Positions 1 to 15,477 of a stretch of DNA of 32,000 nt are shown here, piece by piece. The notes under the pieces are model-generated. The model was given only the letters and a program-made list of their open reading frames with translations. It did no database searches and was not told where the DNA came from. A program made the translations under genes and the position numbers. The DNA lies in contig NC_014033.1 of the NCBI RefSeq assembly GCF_000025925.1, positions 1,890,001 to 1,922,000 on the forward strand, given 5' to 3'. The first letter of the stretch is position 1. Each line of letters opens with the position of its first letter. Source of the DNA: Xylanibacter ruminicola 23. GTDB taxonomy: Bacteria > Bacteroidota > Bacteroidia > Bacteroidales > Bacteroidaceae.

Positions 1-420
1 GTTCAACTGGCGGATACGCTCGGCCACATCGTGCTCAACAGGACCTTTGGCTACTGGTGGCTGCAACTCAGGATACACTGGCACCGTCGGCTGCCGCACG
101 ACACCCTGAGGCACACTGCTACGCCAGATCTGAAACGACTGCTCGTCGATTGAGCTGTCTATTTTTATCGTTTTACAACCATCCCTGCAGTCCTCTATCT
201 CGTGCCCCAAGCGGTGTAGCACCAACTTCGGGAAGCCTATATCCACTACATCCGAACCTACCACTTTTACAAATTTCCGTCTGACCTCATACTGTCGCAC
301 ATGGTTCACAAACAGGTAGGCACTACGTTCGAAAGCGCGGTAGAATCCGCCCTCAGGCCATAGCCGGATTGTATTCTCGTTTTGCTGCTCGAAGGCAAGC
401 TTTTCTTTCATTGTCGGCAT
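1..420 (-). CDS. Hypothetical protein whose C-terminus runs off the left window edge. Co-oriented ORF immediately downstream of the DGR RT, with a possible MutS-domain-I-like N-terminus.
   Basis: Absent from the supplied ORF track because it has no stop in the window. The reverse complement of 1..420 starts at ATG (418-420) and stays open for all 140 codons: MPTMKEKLAFEQQNENTIRLWPEGGFYRAFERSAYLFVNHVRQYEVRRKFVKVVGSDVVDIGFPKLVLHRLGHEIEDCRDG... It begins 25 nt after the RT stop on the same strand. An alternative start is MKEKL at 411. The GGFYRAFERSA(x25)IGFP spacing resembles the MutS mismatch-binding domain pattern GDFYELFxxDA...AG(I/V)P; this is from memory and weak. Confidence 0.6.
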   Translation of the reverse strand, partial: MPTMKEKLAFEQQNENTIRLWPEGGFYRAFERSAYLFVNHVRQYEVRRKFVKVVGSDVVDIGFPKLVLHRLGHEIEDCRDGCKTIKIDSSIDEQSFQIWRSSVPQGVVRQPTVPVYPELQPPVAKGPVEHDVAERIRQLN

Positions 421-445
421 ATCTTCAACTTTCTTTTTTAATACA

Positions 446-1687
446 CTACTTCTCGAATAATATCTCCAATTCCACTTCCAGGCGCGCCAGCTGTCGCATC
501 TTCTCACGATACACTCGGCGCACACACACCTTGTATCTCTTACGGTTCATGCTCACATACATCACCTGATACCACTCAGGACTGATCCTGTCGAGCAGTT
601 TCCTAACCTGGTTGTAAGCAGCAAAGTGGCGCATCATGCCAAGATAGGAGTTCATCGTAGAAGCAAACTCGTTCACATGCTCGCGTGCATAGTGCTCATC
701 CGACTGAGCCAGACGATTGTAGCGCTCAATCTTGTCGATACAGGTGGCTATCGTGCGCCGGCTGATATAGGTGCGCCCTGGCATCACCATACCGCCAGTG
801 AACAGTACGCCCTTGGAGTAGTGCTGCAGATACATCTTCTTGGGATGACGCCGCACACCGTTCCGGGCTGCCCATTTGTCGACAATCTCATCACGCATCC
901 ATAGTAGCAGTTCCTTGTCGCGACTCACGAATATCATGTCGTCCATATAGTGGCCATAGCTCACCGACATACTCCAGAGACTGTCGGTTATCTCGTGGTC
1001 GAGATCGTCCATGAATACCAAGGCTGTCATCTGACTGATTACCTTGCCTATCGGCATACCATGCAGGCCGTCGCTGTGAAACAAACTCTTGTTGGGCGGC
1101 AAACCGTTCCAAGCTTTCAGCGGACTGTTACGCACACAATTCAGCTCAGGCCGGTCCATAATCACCACGCGCAGCAGCCATATCATCCACTCCAGGTCGG
1201 GACCACGGTATATCTGCCGTAGCAGACTGGCGAACTTGCGCCATGCAAGCTCCTTGGGCAGCGACATGAAGTACGACTGCATATCGAGCTTCATCACCCA
1301 GCAGTCGACCGTATAATTAGCTGACTGCTCTCTCACCATCTGCTCTACGCGCTGTATGCCATAGAGCGTGCCCTTGCCCACTCGGGTTGAGTAGTTGTCG
1401 TCGATGAACCGCTGCTCAAGAAAGGGCGTTACCCTCTGGGCGAAAACCGTGTCGACCACGCGGTCGCGAAAAGCTGCGCCGAAGATTTCCCGTTTCACGG
1501 GCTTATCGCTGACAAACACGATAGAGCGCGAAGGCTTGTAGGTACAGTTTTGCAACTCTTGCCACAGCTTCAGGCACTCCTCTTCGGCATTAATCTCAAA
1601 ACGAATAGCGTCTATCGTATTACCCTTGTGCCGCAAGCACAGCCAATAGGCTTCGTAGACCTCTTCGTAACTGACACCACATTTCAT
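446..1687 (-). CDS. DGR-type reverse transcriptase
   Basis: 413-aa ORF. The catalytic YxDD box reads SYGHYMDDMIFVS. The DGR-clade signature (I/L)GxxxSQ is present as PIGKVISQ, where retron and group II intron RTs carry QGxxxSP. The start codon lies 23 nt downstream of the TR. Confidence 0.92.
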   Translation of the reverse strand: MKCGVSYEEVYEAYWLCLRHKGNTIDAIRFEINAEEECLKLWQELQNCTYKPSRSIVFVSDKPVKREIFGAAFRDRVVDTVFAQRVTPFLEQRFIDDNYSTRVGKGTLYGIQRVEQMVREQSANYTVDCWVMKLDMQSYFMSLPKELAWRKFASLLRQIYRGPDLEWMIWLLRVVIMDRPELNCVRNSPLKAWNGLPPNKSLFHSDGLHGMPIGKVISQMTALVFMDDLDHEITDSLWSMSVSYGHYMDDMIFVSRDKELLLWMRDEIVDKWAARNGVRRHPKKMYLQHYSKGVLFTGGMVMPGRTYISRRTIATCIDKIERYNRLAQSDEHYAREHVNEFASTMNSYLGMMRHFAAYNQVRKLLDRISPEWYQVMYVSMNRKRYKVCVRRVYREKMRQLARLEVELEILFEK

Positions 1688-1710
1688 TTACAAATAGTCA
1701 ATATTCCATA

Positions 1711-1822
1711 GGCGAGGACGGGGCGAACGCGTCGGTCCGTATTGGACTTAGTGTTGTTGCCGTTCAGATAGAGTTTACCATCGGTGTTGAAGTTCAGATT
1801 GAACGCATAGCCAGCACCCTTT
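1711..1822 (-). repeat. DGR template repeat (TR), non-coding
   Basis: 112 nt, 100/112 identical to 2563-2674. In gene sense it is rich in AAC/AAT/AAA/AAG triplets in the frame of the VR codons. It lies in the avd-RT intergenic region. Confidence 0.9.
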
Positions 1823-1991
1823 CCACTCGAACAAATGTTATCAGTTGTCTTCTGTCTTTACTAACTGCACCGTTTACGCGACGGTCGTGTCAGTCGATAA
1901 CCCCTATAGATAATAGTTGACAGCTCTCTCCGCCAAGCCTTGACCGGGCGGACGCTCGCCATTTGGTGTTTGTTATTACTTTATTTAATGA

Positions 1992-2444
1992 TCACTTATC
2001 TTTCTGCTCTTTTTCTGTGACACGTATCCACCCCGACAGCATACGCCCGATGGTGTCGTAACGTGGCGCTATCTGCGCATAATGCTTCTTGCTCATCACG
2101 CGCTGATGCACACAGATGCGGCACAGCATACGCTGGTAGGTTAGCACCTCGAGGGCCTGGCGCATCTGAGCCACACTCTCGCGACGCTGGTGGTTGGCCA
2201 CGTAGATGAGCGACATGAGCTTAAGCCCCAGACTGCGCAACTCTTCAGAGAACAGGCGGTCGGTCTTGTTAAACTGGCTCGTCAGCGTGCATATATCGCT
2301 GAGCAGCATGGCCGACTCCTTATACACCTTGAGCTTCTCGGCTGGATCGAGCCATTCGCCCTCAACCACCGCAAGGGTCAGCAGTTCGGCACTCAGGCCG
2401 AGCTCAAAGCCCCTTCTGGCATCGGTATCAACAGGATTCTCCAT
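1992..2444 (-). CDS. avd: Accessory variability determinant (Avd)-like four-helix-bundle protein
   Basis: 150-aa ORF that looks predominantly helical, with a basic C-terminus (KKHYAQIAPRYDTIGRMLSGWIRVTEKEQKDK). It occupies the canonical avd slot between the target gene and TR. The IGRMLxGW-type C-terminal motif recalls the four-helix-bundle / 23S rRNA IVS protein family, from memory. Confidence 0.65.
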   Translation of the reverse strand: MENPVDTDARRGFELGLSAELLTLAVVEGEWLDPAEKLKVYKESAMLLSDICTLTSQFNKTDRLFSEELRSLGLKLMSLIYVANHQRRESVAQMRQALEVLTYQRMLCRICVHQRVMSKKHYAQIAPRYDTIGRMLSGWIRVTEKEQKDK

Positions 2445-2486
2445 TGTTTAATGTTGTTATTTTCTATGTTGCTTCCCCCCTCCCGA

Positions 2487-2510
2487 CCTCCCCCCGCCAG
2501 CGGGGGGAGG
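2487..2510 (-). promoter_or_regulatory. GC-rich hairpin/cruciform downstream of VR; candidate DGR target-recognition element
   Basis: cctccccccgc-ca-gcggggggagg has two perfectly complementary 11-nt arms, or about 9-10 bp of stem with a 4-6 nt loop once the tightest pairs open. It lies 53 nt 3' of the VR end in gene sense. No U-tract follows on the minus strand, so it is a poor terminator for the target gene. Confidence 0.6.
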
Positions 2511-2556
2511 AGGATTTTGGGAATTTTAAATTTTTAAATTTTTGAATATTTAAATT

Positions 2557-4632
2557 TTAAAAGGCGAGGACGGGGCGAACGCGTAGGTCCGTACCGGACC
2601 TAGTGCCGTTGCCGGCCAGATAGAGGCTACCATCGGTGTCGAAGTTCAGACTGAACGCATAGCCAGCACCCTTTGCGGATTCTGTACTTGCCCAATAGTA
2701 TCCACCCGATCCTGCAATATCCGTCCACATATTCGACTTATCCACTGTTGCGCCTGTATTCTTCAGGCAGTTCTTTGCAGCAGTATTGAAAGCAGAGGCA
2801 GTTGAAGACGCTGCTCCACTCCAATAGCAATAGTTATCAGCATGGAACGTTCCCGGATTGGTACTAATACCACCAAAGAACTTAATCCACTCGTACTGCT
2901 GACCGATGCTGGGCAGATACCAGCCGCTGGTACCGGCAGGATGAGCCACCTCGCTCTCGTAAGTGGTCACAGCTGCATAGGCTGCAGGATATACCGCCTG
3001 ACTGTAATTAGCCGTGCTTGTAATCAGATTTGTTTCGCTGCGACCGTCCATATAGCCAGCACTGGCCACATAGTCATCCAGCTTGGTCTGATTAGTGATA
3101 TCAACAGGAGTGCCCAGTTGGATGCTCTCGGTTGACCATGCCATGGTGGCACTGCTGCTTACATCCTTCAGAGCGATGGCATAGCCACGCTGGAAGCCTG
3201 CTGCATAGTCGACAGCGCTCACGTTGGTACTGAATACGATAGCCACTGGAGTCTTGTCGGGGAACATATCGAGTGTACCCCAGGTACCATCGGCAAACAA
3301 CAGATCACCAGGAACAGGATCGGGCAATCCCTGATAAGAGATGATACCACTATTGGTAAAGGTAGCGGTAACGCTCTCATCGTCGAAATCGGTCACTGTC
3401 ACCTGCACATCCAGGTCCTGAATGGTAGATGGCACAGCATTCGACAGGGTGGCTGTGGTAACACTTGCCAGATCGGCAATACTGCTGGCACCATCGCCCT
3501 TGATAGTAGCATTTACGACATAGTGCGCATTAGGCTGAACCACATTAGTGGTTTTAGCACCGATAAACACGGGGTAGTAAACCGTCTTGCTATTCCATGC
3601 CTGACCATCGCTACTGTAGGTACCCTTGATAACCAGGAAGGTAAGATTACCCGCGTCGTTATTGTTGGGCAGGGTATAAAGGGTGTAGGCAGTGCCATAG
3701 CTGGTATGACTGGCATTCATGGTGACATCGGCAATACCGGTACCTGTACCAAGATAATCCTTCTGGTTGGTGGCATTGGTACTTTCGCCCTGATAGTAGC
3801 CGGCATAGGCACCCTGACTGAAGGCATAAGTGCCATCATTCATATCCAGATTAATCTTATCGGGCACACCCACGAGGAAGATCTCGGTCGGGGTGAAGCT
3901 GGCAGCGGTATGCTTGGTGGTCGAGAAATCAACCGACAGAGAAGCTAATGTCACCTTCGACACCAGGTGGTGGACCGTGACGGTCGACTCCCATTTATCA
4001 GCTATGCTGTTGAAAGCAATCGTGCTGTTGCCCACCATAGGCAACTCTGCTGGATTCACATCACCATCATTATCCATATCAAGTGCCTGATCGATAGTAA
4101 GTGCTGTAGCCTTGAAGTTGGTAGCGCTAGCCACATTCCACACTTCTTCTGCTTTTCCTTTGATAGTAGCAACCTTCGAGGGTGGCAGATTGATGGCCAC
4201 ACGCACCAGGTCGCCATTGGCGGGCTTCTGAGCATCAGGCAGGCCCGAAGAATAGGTAGAAGAAATCGTCTTCTGCGAGCTGATCTCCTCGCCAGTGCCC
4301 TCTATATCAACCTCCTTGATATCAAGCGTACTTCCTGTAGATTTGAAAAGACCTACAGTCAGATTAGTCATCATCATCTCGGCTGAGGTAACCGAAGTCT
4401 TATTGTTTGAGTCGTAACCGTTGGAAATAACGGTTGCGCTACGTGTCTGATTACTCACACTGGTAGTGCGGATGTTCAACACGATATCACTTCCCTGCTG
4501 CTTACCGGTAACAGCCTCTTCGGTACTGTCGAGCGTACACGAGCTAACACCCACAGCAGCAACGGCCATGAACACCACACTTAGTATTTTTATATATTTT
4601 GTATTCATATCTTCTATTTTTTTATTGTTCAT
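2557..4632 (-). CDS. DGR target: surface lipoprotein with an N-terminal fimbrillin (Mfa/FimA type V pilus)-like region fused to a C-terminal DUF1566 / C-type-lectin-fold variable domain
   Basis: 691-aa ORF. The likely true start is MNTKYIKILSVVFMAVAAVGVSSC at 4608, giving a lipobox Cys. The N-terminal two thirds are paralogous to the upstream fimbrillin (TLTIDQALDMDNDG.. vs PLTISQALDSDGNG..; SKVTLASLSVDF vs TKVTLESLSVND; FTPTEIFLVGVPDK vs FKPTQVFLYKVADK). The C-terminus has DUF1566-like motifs (GWYLPSIGQ, YYWASTE, ...VRPV) and ends in the VR. Confidence 0.88.
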   Translation of the reverse strand: MNNKKIEDMNTKYIKILSVVFMAVAAVGVSSCTLDSTEEAVTGKQQGSDIVLNIRTTSVSNQTRSATVISNGYDSNNKTSVTSAEMMMTNLTVGLFKSTGSTLDIKEVDIEGTGEEISSQKTISSTYSSGLPDAQKPANGDLVRVAINLPPSKVATIKGKAEEVWNVASATNFKATALTIDQALDMDNDGDVNPAELPMVGNSTIAFNSIADKWESTVTVHHLVSKVTLASLSVDFSTTKHTAASFTPTEIFLVGVPDKINLDMNDGTYAFSQGAYAGYYQGESTNATNQKDYLGTGTGIADVTMNASHTSYGTAYTLYTLPNNNDAGNLTFLVIKGTYSSDGQAWNSKTVYYPVFIGAKTTNVVQPNAHYVVNATIKGDGASSIADLASVTTATLSNAVPSTIQDLDVQVTVTDFDDESVTATFTNSGIISYQGLPDPVPGDLLFADGTWGTLDMFPDKTPVAIVFSTNVSAVDYAAGFQRGYAIALKDVSSSATMAWSTESIQLGTPVDITNQTKLDDYVASAGYMDGRSETNLITSTANYSQAVYPAAYAAVTTYESEVAHPAGTSGWYLPSIGQQYEWIKFFGGISTNPGTFHADNYCYWSGAASSTASAFNTAAKNCLKNTGATVDKSNMWTDIAGSGGYYWASTESAKGAGYAFSLNFDTDGSLYLAGNGTRSGTDLRVRPVLAF
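2563..2674 (-). repeat. DGR variable repeat (VR), encoding the last ~37 codons of the target protein
   Basis: Homologous to TR at an offset of 852 nt. It encodes KGAGYAFSLNFDTDGSLYLAGNGTRSGTDLRVRPVLA, and only two codons (F, stop) follow the repeat. Confidence 0.9.
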
Positions 4633-4666
4633 ATTATGATACTCTCACTATAAGCATGCCAACCTA

Positions 4667-5944
4667 TCAGTTAGTCGTAGTCGTCGAGCCACCTTCGCCA
4701 CCAAAGGTTGTGTTCTGTTCACCATCACCCCATTCAGACACCGAATTGAAAGCCACGGCTGTGTTAGCCTGCACATCAACACCGGCATCGATACTGGCAG
4801 CACCCTTACGCTTAAGCACTACCTTGATGCGATAGTTGCGGTTAGGATAGAATTTGCGATACTGCAACTCATCCATGGCCACACCGCTCACCACATTGAG
4901 CAAACGGAAGTTATAATAGCAGGTGCTCTCAGAAGAGCCATCGTTCCAAAGGCCCTTCACAACCAAGCGGGTGTCGTTACCCTCTGTGGGCGAGGCAAAC
5001 ACATTAGGCATGGCATAGAGCACGCACACCTTGTCAACCGAACTACCATCTACCCAGGTGGGATTGGTAGCATTAAGCGTAGCCAGGTCGCCATCACCAT
5101 CCGAGTAAACCTTTGTTCCCAGATACGCAGCAAAGTGAGCTGGAGCGGGATCGGTCACCTCACCGGTATAGTCGCACACGGTACCTGCAGGCGAGAGGTA
5201 ATTAGAGAAGCTATAGGTGCTTGAGAAATCGAAACCGAAATCCATCTTGTCAGCCACCTTGTACAGGAACACCTGTGTGGGCTTGAACGAATTGCCGGCT
5301 GGGATATCGTTAACACTCAGCGACTCGAGCGTCACCTTCGTAATCATGTGACCCATGGTGACATCGGCTACCAGATGACCGCTGGCAGGCTGGGTAATAT
5401 CCACCTCGCCATACATTGGCAGACTGTTGGATTCGGTCGCACCATTGCCGTCGGAATCCAACGCCTGAGAGATAGTGAGAGGAGTAGCCTTGAATGTGGC
5501 GAGCGGTGTACCAAGCGCCTTTACCCCAGTGAATACTTCCTCGGGCACATTGGCAATGATCACTGCACGGTCGCCAGCAGCAAACTGCGTAGCGGGACTC
5601 ACGTTATCAACTGTCGTAGAGAATCCTGATGCTGCCGACTGCCCATTCACGTTGAGATAGTTATAATAAATCAACTTGGGAGTATTATTGTCGCCGGCAT
5701 CTTCCTTGAACACAGCCACCAGCATCGTCTGGATCATCTTCTCAGAAGTCTTGGCTGCCAATGCATCATGGATATTAGTAGCACGGGTAGCACCTACCGA
5801 ACCACTGTTAATCTTAATCGTCAGAGTACTACCTCCGGTAGATGGGCTTACGTCCTCGTCGGTCTCGCTGACGCAGCCTGTCATCACAACTGCCGTGAAC
5901 AGCACTACTGCCCAGGCACTCATTCCTAAAAGTTTCTTTTTCAT
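4667..5944 (-). CDS. Fimbrillin-family (Mfa/FimA-like) pilus lipoprotein
   Basis: The track ORF is 4667..6037. The preferred start is MKKKLLGMSAWAVVLFTAVVMTGC at 5944 (cat at 5942-5944), which gives a lipoprotein signal. It is a paralog of the N-terminal part of the DGR target. Confidence 0.8.
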   Translation of the reverse strand: MKKKLLGMSAWAVVLFTAVVMTGCVSETDEDVSPSTGGSTLTIKINSGSVGATRATNIHDALAAKTSEKMIQTMLVAVFKEDAGDNNTPKLIYYNYLNVNGQSAASGFSTTVDNVSPATQFAAGDRAVIIANVPEEVFTGVKALGTPLATFKATPLTISQALDSDGNGATESNSLPMYGEVDITQPASGHLVADVTMGHMITKVTLESLSVNDIPAGNSFKPTQVFLYKVADKMDFGFDFSSTYSFSNYLSPAGTVCDYTGEVTDPAPAHFAAYLGTKVYSDGDGDLATLNATNPTWVDGSSVDKVCVLYAMPNVFASPTEGNDTRLVVKGLWNDGSSESTCYYNFRLLNVVSGVAMDELQYRKFYPNRNYRIKVVLKRKGAASIDAGVDVQANTAVAFNSVSEWGDGEQNTTFGGEGGSTTTTN

Positions 5945-6089
5945 AAGCTTTTCCTTTCTTTTAAAGGGTGAATAAACTAGATTGTTAATACTTATTTTCG
6001 AGTTATTAATTCGACTCTCCCTAGGAATAAAGCTCATGGAATGACGTTCAGTAATATTAAGTAATCAGTTCCTTATCCCATGCCTGCAG

Positions 6090-7583
6090 CTATTTCCACT
6101 GCAGGCTCTTCAACGCATCACGCGCCGGTATCACCCCATCGGCCTCGGCCATACGCAGATAAACCTCGGCTTTGTCACGGTTGCCCTCGAGCAGATGCAG
6201 CAATCCCAGGTTGCACCAGGCACGCGGGTCGGTCTCCCAGGCCAACAGGTACTTGCGGGCGCGCTGGGCATCGCCACGCAACAGGGCCACACCAGCGGCA
6301 TCGATAGCTGCCTCGGCACAGTTGGGGAACAGGCGCGCAGCCAGGTCGATGATGTCGCAGAACTCCTGTGAGCCTATCTCGAAGGCGGTGGCTGCCTGAT
6401 AGAAATTGTCGGGACTGATCGAGGCAGGAATACTGCCATTGCGATAGCTGGTAAGCTGGATGGGCACAGGGCGCGGACCAAACGTGAGCTGATAGTTCAA
6501 GCGGCACACGCGGGGGAACAGCTCGTGACGCATCACATCGTAGGTGCTACCAGAGCCTAAGGTGCGCAGAGCCTGCTCACGCCCCTGATCCACAGGGATA
6601 TTGGCGATGATATCAGCAGCAGCGGCCTGCAAAGGCAACTTGCTGACCGACACCAGCTGACGGATGCTGTCCCAGTCCTCGGATATCCACTGCACGCGCA
6701 ATTCGTTCTCGCCTGCCACCTGACGCTCCGACAGCATGCGGCGCAATTTCAGCACCTGCTCGGCAGCACGCTCCTCGTTCTTCGGACGGTTGCCTATGGG
6801 CGCACCATAGCCGGTAAGCTCTATACCCAGCAGACGACTGCCATAACTGGTGGTCTCGCGACTGATGGCCTGCTGTAACGAGTCAACCAGTCGGCGGTAG
6901 TCGGTACTGGTAAGACGGCAGTTATAGGGCACACGCAGCGCTCCTCTGACAGTGATGCCACCCGTACTAGCAGGCTCGGGCGAGAGGAACTGCACCCAAT
7001 GCTTGGCAATACGAACACCAGTAACATTACTGGCAACTGGGGCAGCGGCAACAGCCGACTCACCAAACAGCGGCTGGGTATTAACGGGCTGCCCTAACGG
7101 GATACGCTGCAGCAGCAGGTCTTCGTAAGTATGAGGACTACGGCCCTGCCAGGTGCTCTCCTCGCACTCGGCATACATGGCGGCACTGGCCATCCACTGC
7201 TGGTAGGGCACGGTGGTGTCGTAGATAAAGAAACGAGTGCGACGCTGGTTGTCACGGGTAACCAAGGGCACATTGATACGGCGGCGCTTCTTCAGCTTGT
7301 CGACGCGACGCTCGTAGCGGTCGCGAGAATCACCGTTGATAGCCACCGACGACAGACGGACAAACTGATGACCAGTCTTCAGCACGGGCGTGAACGTGAG
7401 CGTCTCGCCGGTGTTGAGAACCTTGTCGTCGTAACTGACCTTCATGTGCACGCGCAACAGATCGCCCTGAAGCGAGAACTGCTCGTCGCTAATGTGTAGC
7501 TGACCTTTATAGGCCCCCTGAGCCGATGCCATCAATGGCAGTGTCAGCAGCAGAAACAGAGTTTTAATTCTGGACATTCTCAT
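6090..7583 (-). CDS. DUF3868-like pilus-operon protein with a TPR-like C-terminus
   Basis: 497 aa with signal peptide MRMSRIKTLFLLLTLPLMASAQG. It follows the DUF3575-type gene, the conserved arrangement of Bacteroidales type V pilus loci (recollection). The C-terminal AEAAIDAAGVALLRGDAQRARKYL...NLGLLHLLEGNRDKAEVYLRMA looks TPR-like. Confidence 0.7.
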   Translation of the reverse strand: MRMSRIKTLFLLLTLPLMASAQGAYKGQLHISDEQFSLQGDLLRVHMKVSYDDKVLNTGETLTFTPVLKTGHQFVRLSSVAINGDSRDRYERRVDKLKKRRRINVPLVTRDNQRRTRFFIYDTTVPYQQWMASAAMYAECEESTWQGRSPHTYEDLLLQRIPLGQPVNTQPLFGESAVAAAPVASNVTGVRIAKHWVQFLSPEPASTGGITVRGALRVPYNCRLTSTDYRRLVDSLQQAISRETTSYGSRLLGIELTGYGAPIGNRPKNEERAAEQVLKLRRMLSERQVAGENELRVQWISEDWDSIRQLVSVSKLPLQAAAADIIANIPVDQGREQALRTLGSGSTYDVMRHELFPRVCRLNYQLTFGPRPVPIQLTSYRNGSIPASISPDNFYQAATAFEIGSQEFCDIIDLAARLFPNCAEAAIDAAGVALLRGDAQRARKYLLAWETDPRAWCNLGLLHLLEGNRDKAEVYLRMAEADGVIPARDALKSLQWK

Positions 7584-7619
7584 TTCTATATATACATTTT
7601 TTTGTGATTCAGCTTGTCA

Positions 7620-8192
7620 TTATCGCAGCATGTACACCAGCTGCAGACTGGCCGCTGTAGGCCCTAAGTAGTGCATATAGCACCTGCGGCTTACGACCCG
7701 CGTACGGGGCTCGGCGTAACGGCGGTAGTCGTTATAGGCATAGCCAAGGGTGAGCGAGGACTCGAGCCCCCAACGGCTACTCAGTGTAAAATGCCAGCCA
7801 GCGGTAACGCCCACCGAGTAGAAGTTGCCCTGTATGCGCTCGTCCTTGAGCTTGAACACGGGCAGGCCAGCCATATTGTAAACGCGCCAGTGAGCCGACG
7901 GACCAATGAACGGCCCCGTAAACGGCGCACGGAACCAGAAGCGGGCTTCGGGCTGCACCTTCAGGGTGCGCAGGTAGTGGTTTGTGCTCTGATAAGCGGG
8001 CATCCACTCTACATCCGCGTTCAGTGTCCAACGGTGACCGATAGTGAACTCCGCGCCCAGCGACGGTACCGTCAGGGCATCACTCAGCAGATTGGTTTTC
8101 ACAGCCAGCTCCTGAGCAGAGCCTGTAATGGATGCCAGCATCACCGCCGAGACCATCGCTGCGCGAACTTTATGATATATCTTCATACACAT
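7620..8192 (-). CDS. DUF3575-like small outer-membrane beta-barrel protein; first gene of the pilus operon
   Basis: 190 aa. Signal peptide followed by the KTNLLSDAL motif typical of DUF3575, with alternating beta-strand-like segments ending in an aromatic-rich C-terminus. An alternative start is MKIYHK at 8186. Confidence 0.75.
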   Translation of the reverse strand: MCMKIYHKVRAAMVSAVMLASITGSAQELAVKTNLLSDALTVPSLGAEFTIGHRWTLNADVEWMPAYQSTNHYLRTLKVQPEARFWFRAPFTGPFIGPSAHWRVYNMAGLPVFKLKDERIQGNFYSVGVTAGWHFTLSSRWGLESSLTLGYAYNDYRRYAEPRTRVVSRRCYMHYLGPTAASLQLVYMLR

Positions 8193-8217
8193 TCCATTTT
8201 TCCTTCTCCCCGTACAT

Positions 8218-8236
8218 TCCTATTATCAATAGGAGT
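8218..8236. repeat. Left arm of a 19-bp perfect inverted repeat (IR-L), 26 nt upstream of the DUF3575 start codon
   Basis: tcctattatcaataggagt at 8218-8236 equals the reverse complement of 9411-9429 (actcctattgataatagga). The match extends to 22 bp with one mismatch (8215-8236 vs 9411-9432). Each arm is also an internal 7-3-7 palindrome. Confidence 0.85.
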
Positions 8237-8263
8237 ATATCATTCTATTAAAAATATTATGCG

Positions 8264-8271
8264 TACCTTTG
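8264..8271 (+). promoter_or_regulatory. Bacteroidetes -7 promoter box (TAnnTTTG) for the integrase gene
   Basis: TACCTTTG followed by cagc, 28 nt upstream of the ATG at 8299. Confidence 0.5.
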
Positions 8272-8298
8272 CAGCCTAAATTAAATGATTAATGGATT

Positions 8299-9276
8299 AT
8301 GAACATACTATCAACTATCAGGATTAACAAATTGGCATCACACTGCTTGAGAGCCATCATCAACAAGAAAGGCAAATCAGAAACGGTTTCTGTCATCAGT
8401 CTGCTGCGCCAGACAATCAACGAAACCAAATCGCAACACAAAACCAGTACCCATAAGAATCAGGTGACAGCCGTCAATGCCTTCCAACGGTTCTTGCACG
8501 AAACCATGCAAACGTTAGAAACCGTCACGATTGATGAGCTGACACCCGAGACCATCAAGTCCTTCGAGAACTGGGCCATCGGCGAAGGGTTCAAACCTAA
8601 CTACGTAGCGCTACATATGCGCTGCCTGCGCACTCTGATCAACAAAATCAATGGCCGAGGCTCCGAACTGTTCAAACATGTGTGTACGACCAACCGTCAG
8701 ACAGAGAAACGTGCCGTAGGCAAGGAAACCATCAAACAGATCCGTGAACTGCATCTGCCATCAGATTCCAACATGGCCCTAGCACGCGACATCTTCTTGT
8801 TTTGTTTCTACGGCATGGGCATTCCCCTTATTGATGCCGTGATGCTTAAGAAGTCGCAACTGCGCGATGGGTACATCATATATAACAGGCACAAAACCAA
8901 CCGCATGGTGAAGGTGCCAGTATGCCAAGAGTTACAACTGTTGCTGGAACGCTTGCCCTCTAACGATTCGCCATACCTGCTACCGGTCATTACCAATGAT
9001 AAGACAGATAAGATGAAACAATACAGGAGTTTTTACCAGCGCTATATGCGTAGTCTAAAGAAATTAACCCTGCTCTCAGGTATCGAGTGTCGCCTCACGT
9101 CCTACACCCCACGTCACACATGGGCAAGCATTGCCTACAGGAACGGAGTCAACATCAACAACATTGCACAAGCCCTTGGACATGCCAATACCAATATTAC
9201 CTATTTATATATAAAAGAACTGAGTTGCTGGCATCTGGAGACCGCCAACAAAATTGTAATGCAGGCCGTTCAGTAA
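8299..9276 (+). CDS. Tyrosine-type site-specific recombinase/integrase, divergent from the pilus operon
   Basis: 325 aa with an N-terminal SAM-like DNA-binding region. The C-terminal catalytic motifs are YTPRHTWAS (H-x-x-R box) and LGHANTNITYLY (His...Tyr nucleophile). The box I arginine is not at its usual position: GMGIPLID appears where TGxRxxD is expected. Confidence 0.85.
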   Translation: MNILSTIRINKLASHCLRAIINKKGKSETVSVISLLRQTINETKSQHKTSTHKNQVTAVNAFQRFLHETMQTLETVTIDELTPETIKSFENWAIGEGFKPNYVALHMRCLRTLINKINGRGSELFKHVCTTNRQTEKRAVGKETIKQIRELHLPSDSNMALARDIFLFCFYGMGIPLIDAVMLKKSQLRDGYIIYNRHKTNRMVKVPVCQELQLLLERLPSNDSPYLLPVITNDKTDKMKQYRSFYQRYMRSLKKLTLLSGIECRLTSYTPRHTWASIAYRNGVNINNIAQALGHANTNITYLYIKELSCWHLETANKIVMQAVQ

Positions 9277-9388
9277 ATAAATGCCTATTTTTTATCTATA
9301 AAAGTGGTTTAACCACCCTGATTAGTTAATTAAGCTTAAAATTTGGTTGTTTTTAATTATAAAATAGTATTACAATAATTTAAAAGCT

Positions 9389-9396
9389 TATATTTG
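9389..9396 (+). promoter_or_regulatory. TAnnTTTG -7 box pointing outward across IR-R
   Basis: TATATTTG followed by caccc, the same 12-mer TATATTTGCACC as the SusC promoter box at 23041. It lies 15 nt before IR-R and is immediately followed by the long hairpin at 9404-9438. Confidence 0.45.
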
Positions 9397-9403
9397 CACC
9401 CAG

Positions 9404-9445
9404 AAACCGCACTCCTATTGATAATAGGATTGCGGTTTTATAATG
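9404..9445 (+). terminator. Strong hairpin plus U-run, an intrinsic-terminator-like element that embeds IR-R
   Basis: aaaccgcaCtcctatt-gat-aataggaTtgcggttt forms 15 bp with one C/T mismatch and a 3-nt loop. The GC-clamped base ccgc/gcgg is followed by ttttataa. It could terminate the integrase transcript and/or transcripts from the 9389 box. Confidence 0.5.
9411..9429. repeat. Right arm of the 19-bp perfect inverted repeat (IR-R)
   Basis: actcctattgataatagga is the exact reverse complement of 8218-8236. Confidence 0.85.
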
Positions 9446-9494
9446 CCCACAACAAAAAAACGACCAAAAGTTTGGAAGTTTCGGATAATCATCG

Positions 9495-9502
9495 TATCTT
9501 TG
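9495..9502 (+). promoter_or_regulatory. TAnnTTTG -7 box upstream of the small ORF/vapD pair
   Basis: TATCTTTG followed by cagc, 23 nt upstream of the ATG at 9525. Confidence 0.45.
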
Positions 9503-9524
9503 CAGCGGATAATGAATATAGAAT

Positions 9525-9704
9525 ATGGAACCAAAGATTGGAGACAAGATGAAAGTTAGTCCACAGTTGACTGCACAGTCAGACTGGATTGATGGTGAAG
9601 TGATTGATGTTGAACACAATCCGTATATGGGGCTCATCATTTCAATTAAGGATAAGCTCGGAAGAATATTCTTCGGACAGAGTCGTTTCTTTATAGCCTT
9701 GTAA
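9525..9704 (+). CDS. Small hypothetical protein (59 aa) immediately upstream of vapD; candidate partner/antitoxin
   Basis: Translated by hand because it falls below the ORF-track length cutoff: [59 protein letters not shown]. The TAA stop at 9702-9704 lies 7 nt before the vapD ATG, and a promoter box sits just upstream. No family was recognised. Confidence 0.45.
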
Positions 9705-9711
9705 TAGCAGA

Positions 9712-9996
9712 ATGTTTGCAATCGCTTTTGATATGGACATAAAGGAACTCCGTAGTACTTACGGAGAGCCTTATAATAATGCATACTACGAAATAAAGAT
9801 TTTACTTCGTAATTATAACTTTTATAATACTCAAGGTAGCGTTTATCTAACAGATAAAGACGATATGGCAAATCTTTTTGCTGCAATCTATGCCTTGAAG
9901 AAGATTAAATGGTTTAAATCTTCAGTTCGAGACATTCGAGCATTTAAGGTTGAGAACTGGTCTGATTTCACTGATATAGTTAAAGCAGAAGATTAG
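9712..9996 (+). CDS. vapD: VapD (virulence-associated protein D) family, a Cas2-like endoribonuclease
   Basis: 94 aa. It is collinear with my recollection of Haemophilus VapD: M(F/Y)AIAFD..., TQGSVY/LY, DMANLF, and SVRDIRAF(K/R)(V/I)E(N/Q)WSDFTD near the C-terminus. Confidence 0.85.
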
Positions 9997-10053
9997 GATG
10001 TTTCGAAGAACCGGTGCATCTTAACAGCCAAATATAACTTTTCATAAAATAAG

Positions 10054-10096
10054 AAACCGCCCTGACGAGTCGCTACTCATGGGGCGGTTTTCAAAA
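10054..10096. terminator. Bidirectional intrinsic terminator between vapD (+) and susD-like (-)
   Basis: aaaccgccc (10054-10062) pairs with gggcggttt (10082-10090), and the loop has an inner gagt/actc pairing. T-runs follow on both strands: tttc aaaaaa on plus, tttcttatttt on minus. Confidence 0.6.
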
Positions 10097-10164
10097 AACA
10101 ACTAACCTTAATTAATCTGCTAACATTTAATATGTATGAACCAAATTATGTCTAGTTGGTAGAA

Positions 10165-12300
10165 TTAATAACCAGGGTTCTGCCAAGCCTTCTTGTCGGC
10201 ATCGCTCAGGTTGGTACCATCCTCGTTCTGCAGAGTATCAATGAACTTCTGAGGAATAGGACGATACATGTGACGGTCCTGTACGTTAGGTGCAGCCTCG
10301 GGGTTGAAAGCCTTGGCACGCTTAACCAGCAGTCCGGTACGAGCCAGCTCATCCCAACGGTTCCACTCACCTAACAGCTCACGAGTACGCTCGTTGAATA
10401 CGAAGTTAAGCATACGATCGTAATCGCTGGTTGCACCAATCTCCTTCAGGATAGCCTCATCCTCGGCAGGCAGCTGAGTGTAGCTCTTGATCTGCAGATC
10501 AGAAGCATCGGTAGTCTCGGCAATACCTGTTGAGAGGTAATAAGTATTGGTGTGAGTCATTGAGTAAGCGTAAGCCTCGGCATTAGTGAGTTGCTTACCA
10601 CTCTTATCCTTGTTCTTCTTAGGAGTGATGCTGGCAGCTGTAGAGTTATCGGTGATACCACCATCGCTCTTCAGGAAGGCCATCGAACCATCGGTGTAGT
10701 AGCTACGATCCTCACCCTTCTTCCACTGACCACGGGCACGCAGCACGTTAACAGTGTTGATAGCCTCCTGGTAGTTACCCATACGAACCTGGCACTCGGC
10801 CTTAACCAGATAGGTCTCACCACTACGAGCCATGATTACATCGCGGTGGGCATCGCCCTTCTCACCGGTACGGCTACCGTCGGCAGTCTTGTTGATACCG
10901 CAGAATACGTTTGAGGTTGAGGGGTTACCAGTATAGGTGTTCAGCACGTACTTGCCATCCTGGAAAGTAACGAAAGCATTGGGCACCCACTTACCTGTAA
11001 GAGGATTAACAAAGCTGTGTACATCGCCACCACGACCGAATGTTCCGTAAGGATTGCCATCGAAACGAGCATCGCTCTTCTTGTTCAGGATGAAGATGAT
11101 ACCCTCGTCGCCCAGATCGGGAACCTGATCGGCTGTGATACCGTTCTGTGAAATCACGTCGGCATCCTTCTTAGCAGCATGGTTCAAACCGTAAACGGTC
11201 TTGAAGGTCTTCCACATACGGGCATCGTTCACATTATCGTAAACAGAGTAAGCATACTCAGTAGGACGGCAGCGCTGGAAGTCCATACCACCGATGTACT
11301 GGCCACGCTGAACCCAACCACCTGAGAAGTTAGAGAACTGAGGATCGAAGTAGTTATAGGTACGGTTACCGAAACGACCCTGAGTGGTCTTATCCTCATT
11401 GTGCTCGGCAGCCATCAGGATTTCATCCAAGCCCTCGTTAGGACAGTCGATACCAGTCCACTTAGCATACAGATCCCAGTAGTCAGATGCCAGAGGACAT
11501 GCTGCAATCACCTCGTCGCAAAGAGAGATGGCACGATTCAGGTCGGTAGCCTTATCGTACTTAGATGCCCAAGAGGCGCAACGCTCACTCTGACGATACA
11601 GCAGGGCCTTAGCCAGGAAGTGGGCTGCAGTGTACTTGGTCCAAGTACCATTACCACGCCACTTATCCTTTGGCAGCATCTTATAAGCATTCTCGAAATC
11701 GTCGATAATCAGGTTCAGAGTCTCCTCCTCGCTGGCACGGGTAAAGCTCTTCTTAACAGTACCATTGGCAGGCTCGGTCTCGAGTACCACGCCACCATAC
11801 TGGCAGAACAGGCGATAGTAGTTGTAACCACGCAGGAAGTGAGCCTCGCCAAGTGCCTTGTTACGCGAATCTTCCTTAGTAACGTTATCGGCCTTGCTGA
11901 TAATCAGGTTGGCGGTAGAGATACCGTAGTACATCTGATCCCAGAGAGCTGATACGGCAGGACAGTTCTTGTTAGCAGCACCCAGAGCAGGTGTACAGTC
12001 CTGAGGATTCAAACGGTTATCGTATGTGTTCCAAGGCTCGGCGGTCAGGTCGGCTCCATTGGTAAACTCATCGCAACCATAAAGGGTAATACCGTAAGCC
12101 CACTCGTAACCGAAGTGCCAGCGGATGTTACCATAGAGTCCGGCAGCCATCTTCAAAGCACCAGCCTCGTCTTCCAGCAGTGCATCCGAATAAAGATGTC
12201 CAGCATCCTCCTTCAGGAAATCGTTGCCACATGAGGTTGCACCCAGCAGGGTAACCATCGACAGCGCACCGCAAACTATTTTATTGCTGATATATTTCAT
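10165..12300 (-). CDS. SusD/RagB-family nutrient-binding outer-membrane lipoprotein (PUL 1)
   Basis: 711 aa with lipoprotein signal ...LLGATSCGNDFL. It has the SusD-like TPR-rich N-terminal half (YRLFCQYGGV, ALLYRQ) and follows a SusC-like gene after a 39-nt gap. Confidence 0.9.
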   Translation of the reverse strand: MKYISNKIVCGALSMVTLLGATSCGNDFLKEDAGHLYSDALLEDEAGALKMAAGLYGNIRWHFGYEWAYGITLYGCDEFTNGADLTAEPWNTYDNRLNPQDCTPALGAANKNCPAVSALWDQMYYGISTANLIISKADNVTKEDSRNKALGEAHFLRGYNYYRLFCQYGGVVLETEPANGTVKKSFTRASEEETLNLIIDDFENAYKMLPKDKWRGNGTWTKYTAAHFLAKALLYRQSERCASWASKYDKATDLNRAISLCDEVIAACPLASDYWDLYAKWTGIDCPNEGLDEILMAAEHNEDKTTQGRFGNRTYNYFDPQFSNFSGGWVQRGQYIGGMDFQRCRPTEYAYSVYDNVNDARMWKTFKTVYGLNHAAKKDADVISQNGITADQVPDLGDEGIIFILNKKSDARFDGNPYGTFGRGGDVHSFVNPLTGKWVPNAFVTFQDGKYVLNTYTGNPSTSNVFCGINKTADGSRTGEKGDAHRDVIMARSGETYLVKAECQVRMGNYQEAINTVNVLRARGQWKKGEDRSYYTDGSMAFLKSDGGITDNSTAASITPKKNKDKSGKQLTNAEAYAYSMTHTNTYYLSTGIAETTDASDLQIKSYTQLPAEDEAILKEIGATSDYDRMLNFVFNERTRELLGEWNRWDELARTGLLVKRAKAFNPEAAPNVQDRHMYRPIPQKFIDTLQNEDGTNLSDADKKAWQNPGY

Positions 12301-12339
12301 AATTATCTCATTTTTACATTTTATAATTGTTGCATTTTC

Positions 12340-15300: not shown

Positions 15301-15477
15301 TCCCTTAACAACGACACTTGCGCCGATGATTGGCTCGCCCTGTACATCGACGACAGTACCGGTTACTTTGTTCTGAGCGAATGCGCCAATAGCAAACACT
15401 GCGAACAGAACCGTAAACATCAACCTCTGGAGCATGCCCCAGCTGTTGTTCAGACTTGATTTACCAATGTCCTTCAT
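12340..15477 (-). CDS. SusC/RagA-family TonB-dependent outer-membrane transporter (PUL 1)
   Basis: 1045 aa. Carboxypeptidase-regulatory-like N-domain (KVTGTVVDVQGEPIIGASVVVKGTSNGTVTDFDGKFT). Plug motifs (DEVVVVGYG, ITTSERPGT, PLYVVDGVP, IESIDILKDASSTAIYGSRGANGVVLVTTKRG). C-terminal beta-barrel ending in F. An alternative start is MLQRLMF at 15435. Confidence 0.93.
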   Translation of the reverse strand: MKDIGKSSLNNSWGMLQRLMFTVLFAVFAIGAFAQNKVTGTVVDVQGEPIIGASVVVKGTSNGTVTDFDGKFTVANAPAKGNLVISYVGYRSQTIALGGKSDIKITLEEDKQLLDEVVVVGYGVQRKSDVTGALTRVGEKELNARPVNNAFEALQGKAAGVDITTSERPGTVGSIAIRGQRSISAGKGPLYVVDGVPLQATSLDALNPRDIESIDILKDASSTAIYGSRGANGVVLVTTKRGQEGKMQVSYSGSLTFEKIVDKSPAMSASDYITWRRWAYYNMSPDKYTPGDQPTMEQDKNFFGGDDTALANVMKGWAGGTWDGSKVTDTDWTDMVTQTGLTQEHTLSARGGTKNIAGFVSFGYLRNEGTQKGQTFERYNFSASADVKGNKWFKTGGSFNASYGIQQYGYSKAYGTSSGPTDLYGAAKAILRYTLPYDENGDLITQPGGSTTNTYSIIDEWTKSTDERQNFRLLGSFYAQIDLGQIYEPLQGLMWKTQFGPEFRYYRNGNFLDASSISRAGGNNTVSRGDGHQLAWTLDNMLMYNRTFGEHTVGVTLLQSASKTKSESSSISEENVPIPSFLWNNLGAVDVTDTKYKVGIGSGTSGSQLASYMARVNYSYMDRYLLTASARWDGASVLAEGKKWDFFPSMALGWRMEQEEFLKNVSWLDQLKLRLGVGVTGNAAVSPYGTLGLINSYWMPFSTGNSQILVTNEPYYSNSQVQMPNKNLGWEKTTQWNLGIDFSFLKGRIGGTIDMYTSRTSDLILDMSIPSLSGYPSMKTNVGKTKNKGIELTLNTIPVLTKDFTWNSNLNLAWQKDEIVELANGKEDDVNNAWFIGQSIAVYYGYAANGIWQESDAAEMAKFNENGEKFTAGSVRPVDQNGDYKINADDRVILGNKNPRLTAGWSNTISWKGFELTLDLQGRFKYMVSTGGEGQLGMYQQREISYWTPSNTGAEWQKPVYSQAGGDPYSGLLGFKNASFIKIRNLSLGYNFDKKVLKSIGLNGLKLYVQGRNLGMLYSSIDFMDLDTGRTYFNRGVTAGVQVDF

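Follow-up and report, generated by a model that had tools for sequence, protein, structure and literature searches.

A pilus-like operon of Xylanibacter ruminicola 23 with a predicted hypermutated tip adhesin and a probable upstream inversion switch

Gene content of the locus

The window analysed here, a 32,000-nt stretch of the Xylanibacter ruminicola 23 genome (NC_014033.1, positions 1,890,001 to 1,922,000), contains a pilin-type operon whose distal gene, PRU_1583, is the target of a diversity-generating retroelement (DGR). The genes lie on the minus strand in the order DUF3575, DUF3868, a 425-aa pilin, the 691-aa target, avd, the template repeat (TR), the reverse transcriptase (RT), and a MutS-like gene, and a tyrosine recombinase gene between inverted repeats lies directly upstream (Table 1). 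A first-pass annotation, made from the sequence alone, had placed DUF3575, DUF3868, a fimbrillin at 4667-5944, and the 691-aa target in one minus-strand operon, and this order and these coordinates are correct.

Two of the operon genes have a pilin fold, one being a candidate stalk subunit and the other a candidate tip subunit. The other two are DUF3575 and DUF3868, and DUF3868 neighbours DUF3575 in every related operon. The true start of the target is probably Met9 at 4608, which gives 683 aa, because the homologs and the NCBI models begin there. The upstream pilin matches the NCBIfam model FimD_tip_adhes at E 6.4e-13, which is under the cut-off, and its orthologs have weak P_gingi_FimA matches. 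A PDB sequence search with the upstream pilin alone as query gave no matches, and an Rfam scan of window positions 1-10,200 gave no family.

Table 1. Features of the pilin-type operon, its retroelement, and the recombinase cassette, in window coordinates (a slash marks a cleavage site; ORF, open reading frame; VR, variable repeat; IR-L and IR-R, left and right inverted repeats)
Feature	Position	Strand	Basis or remark
MutS-like (probably Msl-type) accessory gene, 5' part, 140 of 162 codons, truncated at the window border	1..420	-	
DGR reverse transcriptase, 413 aa	446..1687	-	Pfam RVT_1 E 4.5e-14; PHROG 1423 reverse transcriptase E 6e-70
Template repeat (TR)	1710..1822	-	113-nt match to VR
avd accessory gene, 150 aa	1992..2444	-	Pfam bAvd E 9.4e-10; NCBIfam DivGenRetAVD E 7e-11; PHROG 3206 E 5.6e-14
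GC-rich hairpin CCTCCCCCCG-CTGG-CGGGGGGAGG, candidate target-recognition hairpin or cruciform	2487..2510	-	About 55 nt past the VR stop
DGR target gene PRU_1583, 691-aa ORF	2557..4632	-	Identical to X. ruminicola hypothetical proteins, including PRU_1583 of strain 23
Head domain of the target, residues ~437-691	2560..3324	-	AlphaFold, Foldseek, profile vs PDB
Variable repeat (VR), target codons 654-691 (last 38)	2562..2674	-	113-nt match to TR
Pilin body of the target, residues ~33-420, two predicted beta-sandwich domains, preceded by a lipoprotein signal with Cys32 and a cleavage site at Arg64	3373..4536	-	
Paralogous 425-aa pilin, candidate stalk subunit	4667..5944	-	Lipobox Cys; GATR/A cleavage motif; FimA-like C-terminal strand region
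DUF3868 protein, C-terminal TPR repeats, signal peptide	6090..7583	-	Pfam DUF3868 E 2.1e-7; TPR matches in PDB
DUF3575 protein, predicted outer-membrane beta-barrel, first operon gene	7620..8192	-	Pfam DUF3575 E 3.7e-58
IR-L, palindromic core TCCTATT-ATC-AATAGGA	8215..8236	.	22 nt, 95% complementary to IR-R
Invertible segment, 1,174 bp: recombinase promoter, recombinase gene, outward-facing promoter-like box	8237..9410	.	Contigs in both orientations
Tyrosine recombinase, 325 aa	8299..9276	+	Pfam Phage_integrase E 5e-13; Phage_int_SAM_5 E 9e-11
TATATTTG, Bacteroidetes -7-type promoter-like box	9389..9396	+	14 nt inside IR-R; motif scan
IR-R	9411..9432	.	Within a -20.3 kcal/mol hairpin followed by UUUU, terminator-like; z-score -6.55

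The diversity-generating retroelement and its activity

The RT contains the motifs IGKVISQ, which follows the DGR-type pattern [ILV]GxxxSQ, and YMDD, both read from the translation. It is of DGR type, and its assignment to this clade rests on the motifs. The avd product scores 39.4 bits against Pfam bAvd, slightly under the cut-off of 40, and also matches PHROG 3206, a family named 'Avd protein of DGR'. The gene starting at 420 is probably a MutS-like accessory factor (Msl). This assignment is made because two orthologs, only 27% identical to each other, both faintly match MutS domain I (MutS_I, E 0.13 and 0.064), and one of them is the 162-aa protein after the RT of a metagenomic relative (L001), to which the product of this gene is 97% identical. 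Msl holds the equivalent position in Bacteroides pilus DGRs (bioRxiv 10.1101/2024.11.15.621889).

The TR has 29 adenines across 17 codons, 7 of them AAY, and could encode about 3e17 DNA variants and about 1e16 peptide variants. Between TR and VR, 11 A-to-N substitutions fall in exactly 7 codons (661, 665, 669, 673, 676, 678, and 680), and a further A-to-T change is present at the last codon, where the homology ends. Eleven of the 12 internal mismatches are at TR adenines, and the mismatch pattern is far beyond chance. Seven variable codons had been counted in the first-pass annotation. Seven do differ today, but 17 TR codons hold adenines and close relatives vary at 12 or more.

One position weighs against a purely adenine-directed exchange. 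Codon 683 (window 2585) is the sole non-adenine mismatch between TR and VR, with CGA in the TR and CTA in the VR, and changes Arg to Leu. The same codon differs between otherwise identical assemblies and, in close relatives, alternates between R and L. Retrohoming may thus introduce a non-adenine error into its tract now and then, or the codon may be a hotspot of its own. Codon 683 was also considered as the start of a non-transferred initiation of mutagenic homology (IMH) element, an idea that is weakened by the difference at this position between otherwise identical assemblies.

The 3' part of the VR, at about 2563-2583 (21 nt), is GC-rich and IMH-like. Past the VR stop codon, the stem of the GC-rich hairpin and the CGGGAGGGGGGA that comes after it are conserved behind the target gene in two relatives (L025 and L027) whose targets are 38-47% identical. 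The hairpin may act in target recognition, by analogy with the DGR of phage BPP-1. An AT-rich run with an 8-nt period (ATTTTTAA-like units) occupies 2514-2561, between the VR stop codon and the hairpin, and the same two relatives have a spacer of similar character.

Turnover of the VR was observed between near-identical genomes. The X. ruminicola assemblies GCA_019973335.1 and GCA_900108375.1 differ from the window by 15 mismatches over 12,978 nt. All 15 are inside the 113-nt VR, and 14 of these are at TR adenines. The fifteenth is the codon-683 site, where both assemblies carry the TR base. In comparison with the 97%-identical metagenomic relative, the TR has 0/113 differences and the VR has 9/113. 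Nine further proteins with at least 87% identity each have a different VR, with changes almost entirely at A-encoded codons 658-683. The TR/VR pairs that four relatives carry themselves have 9/9, 15/15, 12/13, and 10/10 of their mismatches at TR adenines. Because the VR turns over adenine-specifically while the TR and the flanks stay unchanged, these sequence comparisons indicate that the DGR is active on very short evolutionary timescales. The earlier proposal that the DGR diversifies the distal gene of the operon is supported by the placement of every inter-assembly difference in the VR, next to an invariant TR.

Differences outside the VR were also seen. The target gene is 5.3% diverged from that of the metagenomic relative, and the neighbouring genes are 1-2.4% diverged. 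The non-VR amino-acid differences cluster at target residues 156-188, 513-546, and 586-609, the latter two patches being in the head. The pattern may point to additional diversifying selection, or to recombination, acting on the adhesin.

Structure of the target protein

The N-terminal part of the target had been called a paralog of the preceding fimbrillin, and BLASTP agrees: target residues 19-385 and the upstream pilin are 29% identical over 406 aa (E 7e-23). A two-domain beta-sandwich pilin fold was found both by profile and by structure. The profile of 45 homologs matches Porphyromonas gingivalis FimA (6JZJ, E 3e-7) in the PDB, and Foldseek with the full-length AlphaFold model returns 4GPV, 3LIU, 6JZK, 6JZJ, 4JG5, and 4Q98 at E 3e-15 to 3e-12, the first four of these at 3e-15 to 9e-14. 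Two processing sites are invariant across 43 aligned homologs, namely Cys32 of the lipobox (...AAVGVSSC32) and Arg64 (...SNQTR64/S), and the upstream pilin has GATR/A at the position equivalent to the latter. Judged by its sequence and its model, the target is a lipoprotein with a FimA-type two-domain pilin body.

A low-confidence, probably flexible linker (residues 418-436 of the model) separates the pilin body from the head. Modelled alone with AlphaFold, the head has a predicted local distance difference test score (pLDDT) of 93.9 and a predicted template-modelling score (pTM) of 0.91. The sole significant Foldseek match of the head in the PDB is 4EPS, the Bacteroides ovatus tip pilin BovFim1C (E 1.9e-7, template-modelling score (TM) 0.59), and the hidden Markov model (HMM) profile matches the head region to 4EPS residues 263-440 at E 2.5e-4.

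The first-pass annotation had assigned the head to DUF1566 and the C-type-lectin fold. The fold part of this claim holds, but the family part does not. Pfam Lcl_C/DUF1566 is below the gathering cut-off of 34.9 bits both for the whole target (15.6 bits, E 0.02) and for the head alone (17.9 bits, E 0.004), and FGE-sulfatase has no match to the target at E<=10. Lcl_C is found in 7/45 relatives at E <= 0.05, the best relative having E 4e-4. At the level of structure, a Foldseek search of the viral structure library BFVD with the head gives DUF1566-annotated phage proteins and tail fibres (E 3e-9 to 1e-5), with five DUF1566-annotated phage proteins among the matches (E 3.8e-7 to 3e-2, target-normalised TM up to 0.63). 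On the strength of these models, DUF1566 is a resemblance at fold level and not a family membership. The W-Y-L-P-S motif and the C-terminal V-R-P-V motif of the head resemble the Lcl_C family.

Other searches with the head were negative. A phmmer search against PDB sequences gave chance matches only, and a PHROGs scan gave no family. Foldseek against the PDB did not return the Mtd, TvpA, FGE, or Lcl structures, and Intimin was matched only at E>2. This search therefore does not establish a direct tie to the lectin-fold proteins of classical DGRs.

An exhaustive search found 458 representatives with the head family, in which the head is always C-terminal. Seven of 10 sampled representatives have the Mfa_like_1 fimbrillin domain, and some distant relatives of the head have a separate FGE-sulfatase domain upstream of it. 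Because of this constant C-terminal position and the frequency of Mfa_like_1, the head is, by sequence, a native and recurrent tip-pilin module of Bacteroidales fimbrillin-like proteins rather than a foreign graft. The earlier picture of a ligand-binding tip module grafted on a pilin scaffold and hypermutated therefore needs amendment: the head is hypermutated and sits on a pilin body, but it is not an exotic graft.

In the head model, the variable codons occupy a strand (234-240), a turn (241-245), a second strand (246-253), and a loop (254-258), at a pLDDT of about 95-98. They alternate (i/i+2) with the invariant hydrophobic residues F660, L662, F664, L670, and L672. The variable residues are thus modelled on one confidently predicted beta-hairpin plus loop.

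Proposed mechanism

The locus is read here, with a probability of roughly 0.78, as encoding a type V pilus-like surface structure with a tip adhesin that is hypermutated by the DGR and an inversion switch upstream. In the established DGR mechanism, the TR transcript is copied into cDNA by the RT, which misincorporates at random opposite adenines. This cDNA would replace the last ~113 nt of the target gene, and as many as 17 codons in a single beta-hairpin and loop of the head would be recoded, leaving the scaffold residues and the pilin body unchanged. The target would be exported, lipidated at Cys32, and cleaved at Arg64, which would open the acceptor groove. If the subunits polymerise, the paralogous upstream pilin would be inserted beneath the target and the C-terminal head would be left free, placing the target at the distal tip as a reprogrammable adhesin for a putative ligand. 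The name 'type V pilus' is suggested by the fold, the lipobox, and the cleavage arginine. To this extent the first-pass claim of a type V pilus operon stands, but no anchor pilin of the Mfa2/FimB type was recognised in the operon with Pfam or NCBIfam.

This missing anchor is one of several points that weigh against a pilus. A direct Pfam scan gives no family at all, fimbrillins included, at E<0.01 for either pilin, and with the cut-off raised to E<=10 the target matches Lcl_C only and still no fimbrillin family. NCBIfam pilin matches are far under their curated cut-offs. For the target, fim_Mfa1_fam gives E 4.9e-9 and 35.9 bits where the cut-off is 130, and the curated model is not passed. The fimbrillin and Mfa family matches that had been anticipated were thus found at most below cut-off, and the FimA fold emerged from the profile and Foldseek searches instead. 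The full-length model is of moderate quality (pLDDT 70.7), with uncertain interdomain geometry and uncertain FimA-like C-terminal strands (~404-425). DUF3575 and DUF3868 have no known role, and the pair occurs invariably in this operon class. Furthermore, the related small head proteins BovT and BfiT of Bacteroides are periplasmic and not carried on a pilus (bioRxiv 10.1101/2024.11.15.621889).

These points suit an alternative in which the DGR diversifies a lipoprotein of the surface or periplasm, whose pilin-like fold serves as a stalk and which is not polymerised into a type V pilus, and in which DUF3575 (beta-barrel) and DUF3868 (TPR) form a different display or anchoring device. This alternative is unlikely. 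Strand exchange depends on processing at Cys32 and Arg64, and both residues are invariant across the homologs. The Foldseek matches are to FimA-type structures, and the gene directly upstream encodes a paralogous pilin whose C-terminal strand region is FimA-like. In addition, BfrT, a protein of the same layout, is exposed at the surface and is cleaved at the corresponding arginine (bioRxiv 10.1101/2024.11.15.621889). A pilus-like structure with the target at its tip is therefore preferred in what follows.

The invertible recombinase cassette

The recombinase gene has its own -7 box, TACCTTTG, at 8264-8271 in the motif scan. The second box of the segment, TATATTTG, faces away from the operon as sequenced and would face it after inversion. 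In the reference orientation, the TATATTTG box would run into the strong IR-R hairpin, which would be the OFF state. In the inverted orientation, it would face DUF3575, which would be the ON state, and the leader of this ON state folds more weakly than the IR-R hairpin. The repeat core TCCTATT-NNN-AATAGGA has only 2 occurrences in the 32 kb, where 0.1 are expected.

Both orientations of the cassette exist in public assemblies. The reference orientation is represented by at least 5 contigs, and all complete genomes and long contigs have it. Five contigs span one junction of the sequence inverted in silico, with 100% identity over 1,153 nt. A sixth (L019) matches the other inverted junction at 99.6% over 709 nt, and in it TATATTTG, the repeat, and the start of DUF3575 follow one another. 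The repeat arms differ at one position, and this mismatch segregates as a crossover in the core would predict. Two independent Logan contigs, each from an unrelated run, stop precisely where IR-L has its inner edge. The 'candidate switch' of the first-pass annotation is thus a real 1.17-kb recombinase cassette between 22-nt inverted repeats.

By its sequence features, this cassette probably gates transcription of the operon through site-specific inversion, with a promoter activity that is predicted from the box. Upstream of DUF3575, no TAnnTTTG box is present on the operon strand, except one that is 400 nt away inside the recombinase gene (8599-8592). This single box counts against the gating model, as does the weakness of TAnnTTTG as a predictor (19 occurrences in 64 kb, both strands).

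A further point against the switch concerns the source of the inverted contigs. All six come from one European Nucleotide Archive (ENA) series, ERZ7615xx, and are chimeric, with a palindromic linker and untrimmed adapters. They are high-coverage (90-420x) contigs from ERZ761544, 545, 549, 551, 554, and 555. The chimeras in this series consist of P. ruminicola fragments ending TTA/TAA (the slash marking the joint), the linker GAGTAGAATTCTACTC, low-GC fragments (BioY, HsdS, YaaA-like), and Nextera adapters. The linker junction is absent from 185,579 species genomes and from the window. Three of the contigs (L004, L006, and L008) have unrelated flanks, and the recombinase was therefore considered as part of a small multi-site mobile element. 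This idea was rejected because the flanks are truncated genes of differing GC content, joined by the palindromic linker with Nextera adapters, and one flank is the recombinase gene itself.

The inverted orientation could accordingly be a library or assembly artefact, for example from template switching at palindromic repeats. The two palindromes would then serve only as terminator and operator, and the recombinase would be left over from a mobile element. The single source series, the uniform orientation of complete genomes and long contigs, and the terminator-like IR-R hairpin would fit such an artefact. It is nevertheless improbable, more so than the unpolymerised lipoprotein discussed above. 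The two reciprocal junctions were both seen, the linker joints are at TTA/TAA sites beyond the inverted repeats, and the arm mismatch behaves as for a crossover in the core. The Logan contigs that break exactly at IR-L belong to other projects, and the core motif occurs at these two places only. Where the recombinase of a relative is 36% identical, its gene is still enclosed by 30-nt repeats, of a different sequence, and operons of this class in other Bacteroidales are accompanied by classical invertons whose core is related. Inversion of the cassette is therefore retained as the explanation of the two orientations.

Possible coupling of inversion and hypermutation

It is conceivable, though rather doubtful, that the inverton and the DGR form one two-tier variation device, in which the ON promoter reads through into avd, TR, RT, and msl. 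Read-through is proposed because the motif scan found no canonical promoter box on the operon strand between 8192 and 1. If this is true, tip hypermutation would occur only in pilus-displaying cells, and OFF cells would keep a frozen VR. The pairing of hypermutation with ON/OFF inversion in a compact 9.4-kb locus makes such a coupling of phase variation and hypermutation testable.

The sequence TAACATTTG at 1823-1850 (minus strand) is a near-match to TAnnTTTG with one extra spacer base, ~15 nt before the first TR base. This box could drive a separate TR-RT transcript, which would speak against strict coupling of the DGR to the inverton.

The absence of a canonical box, the presumed OFF orientation of the switch in the reference genome, and the non-adenine mismatch at codon 683 might also be read as signs that the DGR is a decaying relic, with old TR/VR differences and a head that is now static in strain 23, but this is highly improbable, being contradicted by the confinement of all differences from two otherwise identical assemblies to the VR, by the intact and conserved RT, avd, TR, and hairpin, and by the different VR of every sampled near-identical relative.

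Related operons

The order recombinase, DUF3575, DUF3868, pilin, pilin::head, avd, and RT is kept in relatives with targets that are 38-47% identical. In the relatives with a 36%-identical recombinase, the 30-nt inverted repeats have diverged in sequence and flank the gene, and the sequence TTATATTTGCACCCxGAAACCG is conserved beside the distal repeat, L025 being an example. In other Bacteroidales with this operon class, the recombinase gene is co-directional and a classical inverton of 430 nt is present, with the related core CTCTATTA..TAATAGAG. Four such classical invertons each have one promoter box at the equivalent place, facing away from the operon.

The same operon class with a pilin::head gene but no RT nearby was found, for example, in an uncultured metagenome-assembled genome (MAG), Segatella paludivivens, and Hallella absiana. 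Because the same pilin::head operons occur without an RT nearby, the DGR is, as far as the sequences indicate, an add-on to a pre-existing operon type. These comparisons define a wider operon class of DUF3575, DUF3868, pilin, and pilin::head, usually with a Tsr inverton.

The uncultured Bacteroidales MAG has at least four paralogous recombinase-inverton-DUF3575-DUF3868-pilin-pilin::head modules (L030, L031, L032, and L039). Further head-domain genes follow each module, and no RT is present within 8 kb of any. On sequence grounds these modules look like a family of phase-variable adhesin operons with static heads.

Neighbouring genes

The region just beyond IR-R contains two ORFs at 9489-9996. 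The product of a 94-aa ORF at 9712..9996 (+) scores above the gathering threshold of Pfam CRISPR_Cas2 (27.6 bits, E 3.4e-6). It is preceded by an ORF of ~59 aa, which has its own TATCTTTG box at 9495. Because no CRISPR array or other cas gene was found near 9489-9996, the pair may be a Cas2/VapD-like toxin-antitoxin pair. Two strains (L013 and L014) have a 221-aa NYN-domain gene in this slot, and the region just outside IR-R is thus a variable cassette.

Genes for a SusD-like protein (711 aa) and a SusC-like TonB-dependent receptor (1045 aa), at 10165-15477 (-), form a polysaccharide-utilisation locus beside the variable cassette. This locus is unrelated to the pilus and its DGR.

Comparison with known systems

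BPP-1 retroelement: The DGR of Bordetella phage BPP-1 (Mtd, bAvd, and bRT) is the prototype, and TvpA is another lectin-fold variable protein. The X. ruminicola DGR resembles BPP-1 in its adenine-specific TR-to-VR transfer, AAY-rich TR, VR at the extreme C-terminus, Avd, and GC-rich VR 3' end with a hairpin after it. It differs in being a cellular locus, in having an extra MutS-like gene, and in the position of the hairpin ~55 nt past the stop codon after an AT-rich spacer.

Lcl_C: The head differs from Pfam PF07603 Lcl_C (formerly DUF1566) in length, being about twice as long as the 117-position model.

P. gingivalis FimA: FimA (6JZJ, 6JZK, 6KMF, and 4Q98) shares with the target the two-domain pilin fold, the lipoprotein precursor, and the arginine-specific cleavage site, and its C-terminal strand region aligns with target residues ~404-415. 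In contrast, FimA is a stalk subunit without a head, its identity to the target is about 16%, and Pfam P_gingi_FimA is not significant for the target.

BovFim1C: This static type V tip pilin of B. ovatus (BACOVA_04982, PDB 4EPS) is the best solved match of the head, at 15% identity. 4EPS is a two-part pilin whose head is not diversified, whereas the target has a full two-domain FimA-like body and a VR.

Hin: The flagellar H-segment of Salmonella contains a recombinase gene and an outward promoter, by which the neighbouring operon is driven in a single orientation, and Hin is a serine recombinase that needs Fis and an enhancer. In X. ruminicola, a recombinase gene and an outward promoter-like box likewise lie inside an invertible segment, and the box faces the adjacent operon in one orientation only. 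The enzyme is different, being a tyrosine recombinase of the Bacteroidales Tsr type. By analogy, a tyrosine recombinase encoded within the segment that it inverts would follow a Hin-like layout, and no description of such a layout was found for Bacteroidales fimbrial switches.

Tsr and Mfa1 fimbriae: Tsr-mediated promoter inversion controls Mfa1 fimbriae in Phocaeicola vulgatus and B. fragilis (PMC12940148). As in those switches, a tyrosine recombinase gene lies by a pilus operon, inverted repeats bracket a promoter or promoter-like box, and the reference genomes are mostly OFF. In contrast, the repeats in X. ruminicola and its close relatives bracket the recombinase gene (1.07-1.17 kb) and not a short downstream promoter fragment. 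The repeat core is CCTATTGATAATAGG, where theirs is TACTTNNNANGTAANNGAA, and the controlled operon ends in a DGR target.

BfrT, BthT, and BunT: DGR-diversified type V pilus tips have been described only recently, and only for human-gut Bacteroides. Macadangdang et al. report the tip adhesins BfrT, BthT, and BunT, which are 'domain group 1' variable proteins, and their account includes three-domain hybrids that end pilin operons and occur with Avd and Msl (bioRxiv 10.1101/2024.11.15.621889). The first-pass annotation was thus right that the class of pilus-associated DGR targets is known from gut Bacteroides. In the X. ruminicola locus, too, the variable-protein gene is the last of a pilin operon, and its product has a lipobox and a cleavage arginine in its N-terminal part, followed by a stalk-pilin-like body with a C-terminal lectin-fold head that carries the VR. 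The protein resembles 4EPS and FimA-type pilins. It also has avd, TR, RT, and a MutS-like gene, with about 30 TR adenines. However, the host is a rumen member of the Prevotellaceae and not a human-gut Bacteroides. The operon has DUF3575, DUF3868, and one pilin before the target, whereas anchor and stalk genes are recognised in the Bacteroides operons. Directly upstream of the X. ruminicola operon is a tyrosine-recombinase inverton, and the Bacteroides study makes no mention of invertible promoters, recombinases, or Prevotella.

The locus is therefore a further case of the described DGR-pilus-tip class, and the same design is now seen in a cultured, genetically long-studied type strain of the rumen Prevotellaceae. 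Two particulars set it apart, namely the exceptionally clean sequence record of ongoing VR turnover and the presence of a probable recombinase-inside-inverton switch directly upstream of a DGR-targeted operon.

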